Of a DNA stretch of 58,426 nt, positions 4,028 to 17,420 are shown in pieces. The notes beneath the pieces were generated by a model that saw only the letters and a list, made by a program, of their open reading frames with translations, ran no database searches and was not told where the DNA came from. Source of the DNA: a virus (Duplodnaviria > Caudoviricetes). The DNA is taken from positions 1 through 58,426 of the IMG/VR virus record IMGVR_UViG_3300011114_000309. One strand, written 5' to 3'. The position numbers were made by a program, and so were the translations under genes. Each line of letters begins with the position of its first letter. The first letter of the stretch is position 1.

Positions 4028-5842
4028 ATGAACCTTGTTCAAATCCAAGAGCGACTCAAGGACATGCCGCTTCAAGCGGTGATGCAGTATGCCAACGGCA
4101 TGAACCCGGAGGTTCCTCCGTACCTAGCGCTTGGGGAATTGAACCGGCGAAAGAAGATGGAACAGGCCATGCAGCCTGCTGAGATGCCGCAAGGCACAGT
4201 TAAGGAACAACTTGAACAAGAGGTTGGTCTTGCTGCACTGCAAAAACAACTAATGAATCAGTTGCAGACTCAAGGTCTTCGCCAACAACAAGCGGCTATG
4301 AGTCAGGGTCAGCAGATGGCAAACATGCCTGGTCCTGCACCACAGGGTGTACCGCAACCAGAAGTTCCTGAAGAAATGGCAAGCGGCGGTATTACTACGA
4401 TCAACGTACCAGACGATCAGTTTGAGTTTGGATCGGGCGGGATTATTGCGTTTAAAGAGGGTGGGGATAAGGGAAGAAGAATACCCACATCTGAATTAGA
4501 CATAGACCCATTAGGAACGTCAGAAGCTGGAACAGAGGCTTACTTAGCAAAGTTAGCTAAAGAAGCGGAAGAAAAGAAAAAACAAGAAGACGCAGCAAGA
4601 CTTGAGTTCTTGGAAAGAGCTGGCGTTCCTGTGGATATGGTTAAAGCAACCCAAGAAGGACGTGTTTTAACAACCAATCCAATAACACCAGATAGGGGCT
4701 TTCCTGACAATCGTGGATCAGCCCAACGATTCCCACCAGGACCGCCACCTGCTCCTTCGGCGGCTCCTGCTCCTGCACCAGCAAGACAGCCTGTTGCTCA
4801 AGCGGCTGCGCCTCAAGGGATTGCTGCTGTTGCACCGCAACAAGTTGCATACCCACAGGCTGGTCCTATGCAACAAGCGTTAGCAGCTATGGCTACTGGA
4901 CCACAAGCGCCATATCCAAGTTATGAGCAAATGCGTAAAGAAGCAGAAGCTAAAGATGAGTATCTTACGAAACGTCCAGGCGAAAAGCTTGAGCAATATT
5001 TAGCCACGTTGGAACGACGTGACCGAGAAGATCAAGAACGTTTCCAAGAGATGGAGAAAGAACGTACCCGTGGTGCGTTGTGGAAATCATTGATGGCTGC
5101 TGGAGAAGCGTCTCGAGGACAACGAGGAATCGGCGCATTGTTAGGTGGATTTGGCAGAACATCTGAAACCGAGATGGAAGCTGCTCGAGGCCGTGAAGAA
5201 AAGCAACGTGCTTTGATGCGTGAACGTGAAATGAATCGCGTCAAGATGTCGCAAGAAATTGAAAGCGCCAGGATTGCAGCATCAGAAGGTCGGTTCAAAG
5301 ATCAACGTGAACACGAACAAAAAGCCGCGCAGTACAACCAAGAAAACAAAAAGATTGATGTTCAATTGGCTACCACACAAGCGGGTATTGAAGCGGCTCA
5401 ACAAGGTAGGCAGTACGAATCTGCAAGTGCTATGGCGCGAGAGCAACTTCGTATTGAAGCCGAAGCAAGAGAAAGAAAGTTGGATCGGCAATCTCGGGAA
5501 AGCATTGCCAATTTACCTACGGGTGAAGAACGCATGGCAAGTGCTTTCATTAATAACTACATGAAGGAAAATCCCGGAAAGAAATATCACGAAGCATATG
5601 CTGCGTATAAACAATCTGGACAAGGTGGGATACCTGCTGAACGTCAACAGTTGGCAGAACTCAAAGCTTTACAGAGTAGTTTAAAGAGTCAATTAGAAAC
5701 AACCTTTAAAACCGAAGATCGTAAGAAAGTTCAAGAACAACTTAATCAAGTGAATGAGGCTATTGGCCGTATGGCTGGAATTGGTGCGGCGCAAAACCTA
5801 CCTTCAGATATTCAAGATATCCTTAAAAGATATTCTAGATAG
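4028..5842 (+). CDS. Putative internal virion/ejection protein, coiled coil
   Basis: 604 aa, AAGGA RBS, Q/E/R-rich helices, between the other ejection-type genes. Confidence 0.6.
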   Translation: MNLVQIQERLKDMPLQAVMQYANGMNPEVPPYLALGELNRRKKMEQAMQPAEMPQGTVKEQLEQEVGLAALQKQLMNQLQTQGLRQQQAAMSQGQQMANMPGPAPQGVPQPEVPEEMASGGITTINVPDDQFEFGSGGIIAFKEGGDKGRRIPTSELDIDPLGTSEAGTEAYLAKLAKEAEEKKKQEDAARLEFLERAGVPVDMVKATQEGRVLTTNPITPDRGFPDNRGSAQRFPPGPPPAPSAAPAPAPARQPVAQAAAPQGIAAVAPQQVAYPQAGPMQQALAAMATGPQAPYPSYEQMRKEAEAKDEYLTKRPGEKLEQYLATLERRDREDQERFQEMEKERTRGALWKSLMAAGEASRGQRGIGALLGGFGRTSETEMEAARGREEKQRALMREREMNRVKMSQEIESARIAASEGRFKDQREHEQKAAQYNQENKKIDVQLATTQAGIEAAQQGRQYESASAMAREQLRIEAEARERKLDRQSRESIANLPTGEERMASAFINNYMKENPGKKYHEAYAAYKQSGQGGIPAERQQLAELKALQSSLKSQLETTFKTEDRKKVQEQLNQVNEAIGRMAGIGAAQNLPSDIQDILKRYSR

Positions 5843-15409: not shown

Positions 15410-15435
15410 AAACTCCATAAATATTTATGGAGTTT
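15410..15435. repeat. Perfect 26-bp palindrome, copy 1 (putative operator)
   Basis: AAACTCCATAAATATTTATGGAGTTT is self-complementary; near-identical copy at 29281. Confidence 0.9.
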
Positions 15436-15725
15436 TGATGCGACGCGCAGCCAGGGTTGATGAAAATCAAGGACTTATCGTCAAGGCGTTACGCGCTTGT
15501 GGGGCGACGGTACGGGTCATTTCGCAGGGTGATGGCATACCTGATCTGTTAGTTGGGTACCGAGGCCATACGATTCTGATGGAAGTGAAGGACGGGAATA
15601 AGCCTCCTTCGGCGAGACAGCTCACCACGGCAGAGCAGATCTTCTTTGACCAATGGACTGGCGGGAAGTTATTCATTGTGAACAGCGTAGAAGAAGCGCT
15701 TGATGTATTGAAGGATTGCCGATAG
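15435..15725 (+). CDS. VRR-NUC-like PD-(D/E)XK nuclease / resolvase
   Basis: RVDENQ...GIPDLLVG...LMEVKDG...LTTAEQIF...NSVEEAL. Confidence 0.85.
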   Translation: MMRRAARVDENQGLIVKALRACGATVRVISQGDGIPDLLVGYRGHTILMEVKDGNKPPSARQLTTAEQIFFDQWTGGKLFIVNSVEEALDVLKDCR

Positions 15726-15728
15726 CAT
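15700..15728 (+). promoter_or_regulatory. Candidate sigma70 promoter for a small RNA
   Basis: TTGATG-N17-TAGCAT, ~70 nt upstream of an intrinsic terminator. Confidence 0.5.
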
Positions 15729-15734
15729 GAGGGC

Positions 15735-15800
15735 TGTAGTCCATGTTGTCTCCTGTTGGTCTTCCCAACTTTTGCCCCTTGCAATAAGGGGCATTTTTTT
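15735..15800 (+). ncRNA. Candidate anti-RBS small RNA
   Basis: Promoter, CATGTTGTCTCCTGT seed complementary to RBS/AUG of leftward leaders, then terminator. Confidence 0.55.
15773..15800 (+). terminator. Rho-independent terminator
   Basis: TGCCCCTT-GCAAT-AAGGGGCA followed by T7. Confidence 0.9.
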
Positions 15801-15808
15801 GGTATAGT
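15779..15808 (+). promoter_or_regulatory. sigma70 promoter overlapping the terminator, upstream of structured RNA
   Basis: TTGCAA-N18-TATAGT with TGn extension. Confidence 0.6.
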
Positions 15809-15811
15809 CAT

Positions 15812-15958
15812 CTGGTCGGTGTGGCAACCGGCAGCGCTAAGGTGAACCCCAGAGCATTTAGGTGGGGCTTGTGTGGTCACAATGTCTTCCTTAGCAGACT
15901 GCGTGATTGCCCATGCCAAGGGCCATGCCCCTCCTAAGTCTTCTGGGGTTTTGCTTTT
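15812..15958 (+). ncRNA. Structured RNA resembling phage C4-type antisense RNAs
   Basis: Hairpin with loop GTGGCA; long stem AACCCCAGA..TTAGG..GGGGC / GCCCC..CCTAA..TCTGGGGTT enclosing a hairpin with loop ATGCCAA; followed by T-runs. Confidence 0.55.
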
Positions 15959-15959
15959 G

Positions 15960-16205
15960 GCACTGACCGTACTCCGCACGAGAGTAGGGGCCGCAAGTGG
16001 GGCTGCTCGGAGTTAAACCGCACACGGTATGCCGTTAGGCTAGGGGGCAGATCCCGAACAATCCGTGGGACTCGCCGTAGGCCCAAGTCCGGGGGTGTGA
16101 GAGTTAACCCGTCTCGCACATGGGCCTCCCGCAAGGGGGTGGAATCCTCTCTCTCTATCCTGTATGGGGTAGGGGGAGCCTTTGGGTGGAAATACCCACA
16201 GATGT
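15960..16205 (+). ncRNA. Unidentified GC-rich multi-hairpin structured RNA
   Basis: Several stems with G-U pairs on the + strand; GCAA and GAAA tetraloops; no credible ORF. Confidence 0.5.
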
Positions 16206-16209
16206 GTTT

Positions 16210-16422
16210 TTAGGTGGTTTGGCCGTCGATAAATTCGTCGAGGCCTGAGCCGGTCAGGACATAAGCGGCGTCCTTATATTCCACAGTGATTAGCTGTTGT
16301 CTTAGCCACTCGTATCGTTTGAGTTGGTGTTCTAGTTCTTCAAGTCTTACTGCTGCTCGCTTCGCTACAGCGGCGTCGGCCCAGGGACCGTTAATCCCCT
16401 TTAGCTGGTCGATCAAGTTCAT
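16210..16422 (-). CDS. Hypothetical protein
   Basis: RYEWLRQ...LDEFID pattern common in small phage proteins; last gene of leftward operon 2. Confidence 0.65.
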   Translation of the reverse strand: MNLIDQLKGINGPWADAAVAKRAAVRLEELEHQLKRYEWLRQQLITVEYKDAAYVLTGSGLDEFIDGQTT

Positions 16423-16576
16423 TGGTTAAATCCTTCAGAAGTTCTTCGGCCAAAGCTTTAAGCGCGATGGACTTTAGCATCAGGGTATAGGCCTGACGAT
16501 AGGCATGTTCTGCTTCGTCGTGGAGCTGCTCCACACGGACTTGAAGTTGGACTCTTGGATCAATTTTTAACATCAT
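16391..16576 (-). CDS. Hypothetical coiled-coil protein
   Basis: Probable start MMLKIDPRVQLQ overlapping the end of the HTH-sigma4 gene. Confidence 0.5.
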   Translation of the reverse strand: MMLKIDPRVQLQVRVEQLHDEAEHAYRQAYTLMLKSIALKALAEELLKDLTNELDRPAKGD

Positions 16577-17420
16577 GTAACCCCTGTTTCCACCCCTCAC
16601 GGAAGGCATCCACGATGTAAACGTCGTTGAGAGGGATCTTGTTAAAGTGACTGTAGGCGGTCCAGAAATGTGATCGACTAACCACCCGCTTTGCACAATT
16701 CTGAGTGGCTCTGTCATAGGCATAGTAAAAGGCTTGTTCACAGGCATCAAGAAGTTCTTTGCCAGGTTTCTTTCTTGCCACAAAAATATGCCAAGCGGCA
16801 GAACGTTTACTGGAAAACGTGTCTATATCAAGGCATGACATTAACTTGTCTTTACGATCTCTAAGTTTGATTAGTCCTTTATGTTCAATCTGCCTAACTC
16901 TTTCCCTTGTCACATCAAAGGCTCGACCAACTTCTTCTAAGTTGTGTTCTTTGGAGCCGTCCATGCCGTAACGCATCTTGATGATCTTCGCTTCCTTTGG
17001 CGACAAAGTATGTAAGACCTCGTGGACTTTCTCTTGGATTTCTTTTTTGTGAACCATGTCCTCGAGGGATAAGGTCTCTTCGTCACCGCCGTAGGTGAGA
17101 ACGGACATCTGATGTTTATCCAACAAGACCTGGCCTTTGTTGGTGGTCAAGGTATTCCAGAGTTGTTCTTCGGACCAAAGATCTTCAGGTAAAGCACAGA
17201 AGTAATCTAATAACTTTTGTGCGGTGGCTGTGAACGTACCGTCTTGTTTCAGCGGCGCTTCTTTTAAGGTTATTAATCGGTGAATGGACTGCATGTGAAC
17301 GCCGATGTCTCGAGAGAACTCAGCAATTGATTTAAACCCAGCATTTTCTATGGCACTTAGCAGTAGATTGTTTTTTATTTTTAGTTCTACGCGGTATTCT
17401 TTCATGGTTTCTCCTTCCAT
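16560..17420 (-). CDS. HTH plus sigma70 region 4 fusion transcription regulator
   Basis: LSPKEAKIIKMRYG...NLEEVGRAFDVTRERVRQIEHKGLIKLR matches RpoD region 4.2; N-terminal SIAEFSRDIGVHMQSIHRL HTH. Confidence 0.85.
   Translation of the reverse strand: MEGETMKEYRVELKIKNNLLLSAIENAGFKSIAEFSRDIGVHMQSIHRLITLKEAPLKQDGTFTATAQKLLDYFCALPEDLWSEEQLWNTLTTNKGQVLLDKHQMSVLTYGGDEETLSLEDMVHKKEIQEKVHEVLHTLSPKEAKIIKMRYGMDGSKEHNLEEVGRAFDVTRERVRQIEHKGLIKLRDRKDKLMSCLDIDTFSSKRSAAWHIFVARKKPGKELLDACEQAFYYAYDRATQNCAKRVVSRSHFWTAYSHFNKIPLNDVYIVDAFREGWKQGLHDVKN

Follow-up and report, generated by a model that had tools for sequence, protein, structure and literature searches.

Evidence for a modular structured RNA family, absent from Rfam, in freshwater phage metagenomes

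Time and again, large RNAs that are rich in junctions, with multiple pseudoknots and invariant nucleotides by the dozen, have proved to be ribozymes, riboswitches or the cores of ribonucleoprotein (RNP) particles. To our knowledge only a small number of these classes still await discovery, and those that lack an explanation come in large part from phages. Two smaller themes of phage RNA biology also bear on the element described here. In the immunity region of P4 and in c4 of P1 and P7, two direct repeats flank a complementary sequence within a processed leader RNA, and processive antiterminator RNAs (HK022 put, EAR) are promoter-proximal and lie upstream of the terminators they suppress. The subject of this report is an intergenic stretch, 15960-16205, of a 58,426-base viral record (IMG/VR IMGVR_UViG_3300011114_000309, completeness estimate 93%; the whole of this DNA is called the window), which very probably specifies a member of a real, uncatalogued family of structured RNAs on the + strand. 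Its closest counterparts in status and setting are the orphan ornate phage RNAs GOLLD and ROOL, although their defining features are not found in it. Like these RNAs, which are the subject of a cryo-EM preprint (10.1101/2024.12.08.627333), it is phage-borne and intergenic, is tied to no single neighbour gene, and has many conserved junction nucleotides as well as pseudoknots. In contrast to GOLLD and ROOL, to which it has no sequence or structure match, it is much smaller (~224 nucleotides, nt) and modular, with one common 5' domain and alternative 3' domains.

An initial annotation, made from the letters of the sequence, had delimited a GC-rich, hairpin-bearing, highly structured non-coding RNA at 15960-16205. 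The composition and the listed hairpins are as described, and the boundaries proved almost exact. The family-conserved span is 15967-16190 (+), from CCGUACUCC to the end of the second of two identical boxes, and the similarity of the two closest relatives (L006 and L007) ends exactly at 15960/15961. Comparison of loci found through the two flanking proteins shows that 15961-16205 acts as a discrete module. A covariance model of the RNA (R1) has a single match in the window, at 15962-16224 on the + strand, with 268.4 bits over the full model length, and a model of the 5' domain (R2) matches at 15964-16033 (63.5 bits, E 1.4e-15). The annotation's statement that there is no credible open reading frame (ORF) also holds, as the ORFs that overlap the stretch are all short (66 amino acids (aa), 15934-16134 on the - strand; 38 and 42 aa on the + strand) and the family alignments carry 1-nt and other non-triplet indels.

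The family is in neither Rfam nor the searchable literature. With the 4227 models of Rfam 15, and membership defined as a score at or above the family gathering threshold, there were 0 matches in the whole window, and ARAGORN reported 0 genes there, in keeping with the earlier statement that the RNA is neither tRNA nor tmRNA. At E<=10 over 15500-16500 the Rfam search returned five weak matches, none credible for the module; the only one overlapping it is a human long non-coding RNA model (E 5.2). In the loci of 14 relatives no Rfam match falls at the RNA, the only matches being an int-alpA RNA and a tRNA elsewhere in one locus (L207). That int-alpA RNA (RF02996, 39.7 bits, 5170-5235 on the - strand) and the tRNA lie ~2 kb from the local copy of the RNA and hint at a prophage or integrative context. 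Searches with the family's two signature words found no description in the searchable literature, and the short G-rich word occurs there only in unrelated contexts. The present family may be an unnamed entry among the 10,006 candidate structured RNAs that a screen of IMG/VR and RNA viruses yielded (Fremin et al. 2023, PMC10690425). None of the outcomes that the initial annotation had named as telling against its claim (an Rfam match, or no conservation, covariation or expression) occurred. Its three suggestions for a function (ribozyme-like RNA, protein sponge, replication primer RNA) are conjectural.

Conservation is broad. A 22-nt 5' signature is found in at least 120 IMG/VR stretches and a 26-nt 3' signature in 11. 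All copy counts used here (113, 112, 109, 107, 89, 82, 67, 65, 54, 52) are drawn from the matches listed. Among these, 139 motif matches reduce to 113 distinct copies, of which 112 had the length needed for sorting: 54 are of type A, 15 of type A with an arm insertion and 23 of type B, and the remaining 20 have 3' parts that are longer or of another kind. The window copy is of type A.

The case for a fold rests on comparison among these copies. Helices were picked by mutual information (MI) on 52 distinct type A sequences and then pair-counted on a separate MAFFT alignment, A4 (Table 1). Over the 52 copies and 60 pairs, 91.4% of 2965 cells hold standard pairs, compared with 76.2 +/- 0.4 in shuffles. 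Both sides change in 34/60 pairs and 423 cells (25.1 pairs and 120.6 cells in shuffles), and the covariation score of 0.411 falls to 0.150 on shuffling and to no more than 0.100 when partners are slid by 1-3 columns. None of 500 shuffles reaches the observed type A values. The 5' domain (P1, Pa and PK1) could be followed in 89 distinct sequences of all subtypes, with 93.8% paired versus 72.0% shuffled and a covariation score of 0.508 versus 0.147 in shuffles. Covariation on the + strand is thus strong in both sets. Members beyond the first few were found by the family's signature words, which are therefore invariant in part because of how the copies were collected; this does not apply to the covariation of the variable helices.

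The 5' domain includes a pseudoknot, PK1, in which 4/4 pairs change on both sides and 93.5% are paired in type A, the figure for all subtypes being 82.5% paired. Downstream, Pb closes a three-way junction, and the helices Pd and Pe interlock as a second, H-type pseudoknot (16068..16127) with Pf inside. Neither pseudoknot was in the initial list of six hairpins. Four entries of that list are backed by covariation and correspond to Pd (GGACT/AGTCC), Pf (GTGTGAGA/TCTCGCAC), Pg with its GCAA loop, and Ph, the long pyrimidine/purine stem. The other two did not survive as family features. TACTC/GAGTA (15970-74/15982-86) is present in the window, but GATAGCA is the sequence of most family members at this place and the hairpin clashes with P1; TGGGTG-GAAA-TACCCA is common only to the window and to L008 and L088. 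In Ph, 10/13 pairs vary on one side only, with C or U opposite an invariant G: the purine strand GGGGUAGGGGG is invariant while its pyrimidine partner drifts between C and U. This drift leaves G-C or G-U pairs on the + strand and would produce A-C mismatches on the - strand, which fixes the folded strand as + and agrees with the strand that had been proposed from G-U pairs. About 45 positions are invariant and are concentrated in the junctions, and hairpin loops are often of stable tetraloop types (GCAA, GAAA, UUCG).

Table 1 Features of the RNA and of the unit upstream of it in the window.
Feature	Position	Strand	Description
Promoter-like site	15779..15808	+	TTGCAA-18-TATAGT with TG upstream (extended -10); 9/12 matches, consensus match only
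Upstream unit	15815..15958	+	small hairpin 15815-19/15828-32, branched hairpin 15847-15948, U-run 15949-15958
5' domain P1	15973..16011	+	encloses conserved internal loop and hairpin Pa
P1	15973-76/16008-11	+	100% paired in 89 sequences; one pair GC:83 GU:4 AU:2
Pa	15989-92/16001-04	+	4/4 pairs change both sides, 98% paired (89 sequences)
PK1	Pa loop 15997-16000/16018-21	+	second strand follows P1; MI up to 1.31
Pb	16023-27/16063-67	+	closes three-way junction; 4/5 pairs change both sides, 99.2% paired
Pc	16031-33/16038-40	+	variable-length arm in three-way junction
Pc2	16044-46/16053-55	+	arm in three-way junction closed by Pb
Pd	16068-72/16086-90	+	98.8% paired, 3/5 pairs change both sides
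Pe	16080-85/16121-26	+	98.7% paired, 5/6 pairs change both sides; interlocks with Pd
Pf	16095-16102/16112-19	+	6/8 pairs change both sides; 76% paired, alignment not structure-aware
Pg	16128-30/16135-37	+	CCC-GCAA-GGG; 3/3 pairs change both sides, 97.4% paired
Box 1	16138-43	+	GGUGGA, the 6 nt after Pg
Ph	16149-61/16166-78	+	variable pyrimidine strand with invariant GGGGUAGGGGGAG (16166-78); 84.8% paired
Box 2	16185-90	+	GGUGGA, after near-invariant CUUUG
3' hairpin	16183-98	+	UGGGUG-GAAA-UACCCA; window and L008/L088 only

Several candidate pairings were rejected or are at best tentative. Two that RNAalifold derived from 10 sequences were rejected: a closing helix of 5' UAC-UCCG with 3' UGGGUG, for which the tail variants GGGAGG and GCGAGG are uncompensated at the 5' end, and a pairing of CGAGAGU with ACUCGCCG, which conflicts with the better-supported Pd. 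A tentative pairing, 16091-92/16179-80, seemed to covary in the first MAFFT alignment; on A4 it is 76% paired with no change on both sides. Pairing of the GGAAGG linker between P1 and PK1 with the pyrimidine strand was too weak (mean run 4.97 versus 4.70 +/- 0.10 permuted, max 5.00). Separately, the invariant 5' UACUCCG (15967-15976) can pair with UGGGGUA of the invariant G strand (16165-16171), and this duplex can form in 41/54 type A copies, 28 as 7-bp and 13 as 8-bp. Such a pairing would compete with both P1 and Ph, and because both strands are invariant it is beyond the reach of covariation.

The modular character of the family is apparent when the subtypes are compared: the 5' domain is common to all of them, and the 3' two-thirds occur in at least three alternative versions. 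The window copy has every element of the common domain (CCGUACUCC, P1, the conserved internal loop, Pa and the Pa-loop pseudoknot) and every element of type A (the Pb junction, the Pd/Pe/Pf pseudoknot, Pg, box 1, Ph with its invariant G strand, and CUUUG followed by box 2). About 190-235 nt separate the 5' signature from the common 3' word CYUUGGG in types A and B, and weak covariance-model matches delineate a wider set that has only the first ~60 nt in common. The Pc arm is extended by 120-190 nt in 15 copies. In these (L094 2188-2608, L097, L103-L105, L115 and others), a long, nearly perfect stem stands at the base of the stem-loop.

A scan of 185,579 species genomes with the 5' signature yielded only 4 carriers. 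Each is a metagenome assembly: Aquabacterium, an uncultured Burkholderiales, Sulfuritalea and a 3-kb contig with a Legionella label. Cultured phages gave no match, the sole exception being a 49-nt, E 0.07 match in a metagenome-derived record. DNA sequencing runs in which the stretch occurs are labelled as metagenomes of viral, freshwater, estuary or reservoir type. The carriers are uncultivated freshwater phages, and their hosts are probably Burkholderiales-like.

The 3' part of type A holds a second comparative signal. Boxes 1 and 2 are the same exact 6-mer in 62/67 type A copies, as opposed to a mean of 17.1 and a maximum of 24 with permuted partners, and the shared word differs by lineage (GGUGAA, GGUGAU, GGUGGA, GGAGGA, CGAGGA and others). 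The box occurs about twice per RNA (128 copies in 65 RNAs versus 36.5 with permuted boxes), with a median spacing of 50 nt between box 1 and box 2 and 47 nt in the window. Outside the RNA there is no excess of box copies and there are no iteron arrays. The stretch that follows box 1 is complementary to the box (CACC, CCUCCC, AUCACC etc.), with a mean complementary run of 4.23, compared with 3.70 +/- 0.08 and a maximum of 3.95 over 300 permutations. All box variants are purine-rich and resemble Shine-Dalgarno sequences. As a ribosome-binding site box 2 would suit few copies: in only 9/65 does an ORF of 50 codons or more begin at a suitable distance after it.

The co-varying boxes, together with the complementary box between them, suggest a conformational switch. 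The two identical boxes would compete for the complementary box, and the 3' arm would switch between two pairings: with box 1 the middle box would form a small local hairpin, and with box 2 a helix closing the Ph arm. The switch would make one purine-rich, Shine-Dalgarno-like box, perhaps together with the invariant G strand, accessible to a pyrimidine-rich RNA or to a protein. That this competition works as a functional switch is possible but doubtful. The layout recalls the P4 and P1 immunity leaders in that identical boxes stand on either side of a complementary box in what would be an early, promoter-proximal non-coding phage transcript. Unlike in those leaders, the boxes are ~50 nt apart inside a large pseudoknotted fold, there is no Rfam C4 match, many copies, among them that of the window, have a complementary box that is short or almost missing, and no termination target is evident.

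A second non-coding unit, conserved and likewise unannotated, lies immediately upstream (15779-15958). It comprises the promoter-like site, the small hairpin, the branched hairpin of ~100 nt and the U-run of Table 1, and it looks like a terminator or a short RNA; the fold of 15812-16215 has a z-score of -2.23. Similar TGnTAnAnT words precede the unit in several relatives. In 71/113 copies a hairpin and a T-run are found no more than 45 nt ahead of the RNA, a single blastn cluster takes in 92 of the 107 upstream stretches, and L006 and L007 keep the unit even though they are without the RNA. Most relatives have an equivalent unit ahead of their copy; these units are of several sequence types, none with a match in Rfam. 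Conservation is absent from the 8-29 nt that separate the U-run from the RNA and sets in abruptly at CCGUAC. This order of elements differs from that of the put and EAR antiterminators, as here the terminator-like unit is upstream of the RNA; nor do those RNAs have an Rfam match here. With a conserved promoter, hairpin and U-run unit upstream, read-through from a dedicated promoter would be the most economical route to the RNA, which may accordingly be made when transcription passes beyond the U-run.

The RNA is a mosaic, exchangeable cassette that follows this conserved unit. In L006 and L007, the closest relatives, the flanking 96-aa protein is 97-98% identical to that of the window and the RNA is absent: in both, the match to the window breaks off at 15960 and resumes at 16226, with ~660 nt of unrelated sequence between. 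The L006 insert (4523-5182; L007 likewise) has ~450 nt without a long ORF, then a 67-aa ORF (4976-5179), and no Rfam match. RNA-library contigs with loose ends at 15960 show a stretch related to this insert that also starts with CCGUAC, and for this reason the ~660-nt insert may be another RNA cassette. The module recurs, 70-90% identical, in phages that are more distant (L008, L049, L009, L051, L038); in L051 it has another place with respect to the 96-aa gene. Model R2 finds the 5' domain in 13 of 80 loci collected via the 96-aa protein alone, none of them L006 or L007, and all 14 of its matches are on the strand of the neighbouring 96-aa gene.

In the window the stretch lies in a 484-nt gap (15726-16209) between convergent ORFs, 15435-15725 on the + strand and 16210-16422 on the - strand. 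The former encodes the 96-aa protein, which matches PHROG endonuclease and Holliday-junction-resolvase families. To the left of the gap, two leftward genes encode a PD-(D/E)XK exonuclease and an Erf-type annealing protein, and to the right are leftward ORFs, of which 16210-16422 is the first. These include a 286-aa ORF (16560-17420, -) with sigma-70 region 4 (E 3.4e-16) and a weak NUMOD1 match; a 130-aa ORF that overlaps it (16391-16783, -) has a sub-threshold APOBEC4 match (20 bits versus a cut-off of 27.2) that is probably due to chance. Across 109 loci the RNA is usually to the right of a leftward exonuclease/Erf block and small rightward nuclease-like genes. Among ORFs of 70 aa or more, the first one after the RNA is co-directional in 50/82 loci and convergent in 32/82, including the window. 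When co-directional it is often of a replication type, such as a Toprim and DnaB_C primase-helicase. The downstream gene families are mixed and share no common metabolism, and no protein family accompanies the RNA in more than about a quarter of loci. Gaps from the RNA to the next ORF are mostly 45-130 nt, and no recurrent terminator was seen after the RNA in the tails inspected. In two loci the RNA follows a terminase-like gene. In L211 and L128 a 770-aa terminase-like ORF with an intein-like insert is upstream, and the RNA lies between it and the next structural-type gene, a setting that differs from that of the window.

Known partnerships of RNA with a neighbouring enzyme were also looked for. 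A retron would have an adjacent reverse transcriptase gene; no RVT_1 match was found in the 58,426-base record, the controls being positive in 3/14 genomes. Nor is there in the window an adjacent large nuclease or recombinase as for a TnpB-, IscB- or IS110-type guide RNA, the neighbours being the 96-aa nuclease-like ORF, a 70-aa ORF, the sigma-70 region 4 protein, the PD-(D/E)XK exonuclease and Erf. No recurrent large neighbour gene was seen in the 109 loci, whose neighbour clusters were partly scanned against Pfam.

We favour the reading that the family is a stand-alone RNA, trans-acting or of RNP type, with a probability of roughly 0.45. The 32/82 convergent contexts, the mixed neighbours and the cassette-like exchange point to a self-contained RNA gene. 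The RNA would act as a self-contained molecule, in trans or on itself, rather than as the leader of one gene.

A number of observations weigh against this interpretation. The 50/82 copies with a co-directional downstream gene, often one for replication, keep a role in cis in play. The terminator-like U-run ends ~8 nt before the RNA in the window, so that production would depend on read-through. The module or its close relatives are present in RNA-library contigs from 4 metatranscriptome runs of 3 studies, one 152-nt contig being identical to 16040-16191, and these assembled contigs, which also cover the flanking genes, document presence only and not transcription, strand, ends, level or boundaries; uncovered bins and contig ends in X16-X18 are likewise uninformative, and depth cannot rank the RNA against its neighbours. 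The switch has its own difficulties. Within 400 nt on either side of the RNA there is no excess of box complements and no partner was found. The window and L008 copies have lost most of the middle box, and their tail pairs instead with a private downstream strand (16183-98); in the window only AUCC (16144-47) can pair with GGGU (16184-87). With the longer complementary box missing, the switch may not operate in this copy. The identity of the boxes could also reflect shared recognition by one protein and not a competition for pairing. Two further points concern the fold itself. The description 'highly structured' stands by comparison with relatives and fails by energy: the minimum free energy has a z-score of -0.30 on the + strand, where 80/200 shuffles fold as well, and +0.71 on the - strand. 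Folding energy is thus at chance level, and the case for structure is comparative, not thermodynamic. Lastly, kinship among the sequences inflates shuffle-based statistics, as the pair-counting tool warns; the slid-partner controls keep this relatedness, yet with them the score still collapses.

Among the alternatives, the one that survives best, although we judge it unlikely, is a cis-acting leader, akin to a riboswitch or an attenuator, that would sense a ligand or protein and control the rightward genes, with box 1, the complementary box and box 2 as anti-anti-, anti- and target elements. The compact junction-rich fold, the pseudoknots with purine-rich linkers and the candidate three-box layout are like those of riboswitch-type leaders and their expression platforms. 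The majority of co-directional next ORFs, the recurrent primase-helicase and other replication-type proteins downstream, the Shine-Dalgarno-like boxes and the 9/65 copies with a suitable spacing between box 2 and the start of a long ORF are consistent with such a role. Unlike riboswitch-type leaders, however, the RNA has no co-directional gene in 32/82 copies; the window is among them and faces a convergent gene, so that a consistent co-directional context is lacking. No start codon is found 4-13 nt after box 2 in 37/65 copies, and the platform is followed by neither a conserved start codon nor a conserved terminator. The gaps to the next ORF and the tails inspected show no recurrent terminator, the terminator-like unit being upstream of the RNA and not downstream, and the downstream gene families are heterogeneous.

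That the RNA is catalytic is quite improbable. A self-cleaving ribozyme could free itself from the read-through transcript at its sharp 5' edge, or other chemistry might be involved. The size, the two pseudoknots and the ~45 invariant junction positions are typical of ribozyme cores; the abrupt onset of conservation at CCGUAC, after the unconserved nucleotides that follow the U-run, and the intergenic location independent of neighbouring genes would also suit a ribozyme. Against this, neither the window nor the loci of the 14 relatives match any Rfam ribozyme family, and no joint or recurrent end was seen in the RNA-library contigs, which cannot themselves show ends.

Poor odds likewise attach to a replication-origin transcript, in which the RNA or its transcription would prime or activate replication and the invariant G-rich strand would persist as an RNA-DNA hybrid, by analogy to ColE1 RNA II or the T4 R-loop origins. 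The location between recombination genes (exonuclease, Erf) and, in many relatives, primase-helicase genes is attractive in this respect, as is the dedicated promoter-like site upstream. The invariance of the G strand GGGGUAGGGGG while its RNA partner drifts implies a second constraint on that strand. Type B and the other subtypes, however, are without the invariant G strand and yet keep the 5' domain. An R-loop needs no two pseudoknots and three-way junction, iteron arrays are absent, and the closest relatives manage without the cassette.

An intron-like or autonomous mobile RNA element of group I type is very improbable and already largely refuted. The mosaic presence and absence in varied genomic contexts, and the peripheral arm that tolerates 120-190-nt insertions, brought it into consideration. 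The order Pd5'-Pe5'-Pd3'-hairpin-Pe3' also resembles the P3-P7-P3'-P8-P7' pseudoknot order of the group I core, and the size is similar to that of the smallest introns, with an expandable arm. In contrast to a group I intron, the RNA has no exons and no P4-P6 domain, its would-be P3 5' and P7 5' strands being only 7 nt apart; it is intergenic, follows a terminator-like U-run and is not flanked by the halves of a split gene. There is no Intron_gpI match even at E<=10 and no reverse transcriptase in the record, and other DNA fills the site where the RNA is absent, which means that there is no clean empty site. A DNA-level element without an RNA role, either protein-binding repeats or a recombination site, is scarcely tenable: two identical 6-bp boxes about five helical turns apart that co-vary as the sites of one protein would, and a stretch that is a recombination boundary, are outweighed by compensatory changes in 34/60 pairs that include two pseudoknots, the G-U asymmetry that points to one folded strand, the frequent stable tetraloops and the presence in RNA-library contigs.

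A stand-alone RNA of the favoured kind might even represent a new class of phage RNA with its own biochemical job, as a ribozyme or an RNP core, in which the 5' pseudoknot domain would be the engine, the swappable 3' domains would set the specificity, and the two-box switch would operate in a molecule gated by read-through; in this full form the proposal is speculative and unlikely to be correct in all its parts. What the family adds is more concrete. Abundant in metagenomes of freshwater phages, it is missing from Rfam and from cultured phages. Its design is unusual, as a common 5' domain is joined to interchangeable 3' domains, and two direct-repeat boxes that co-vary with each other are a rare signal. 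A second unannotated conserved RNA unit is flagged just upstream, and the family itself offers a defined object of ~224 nt with a model backed by covariation.

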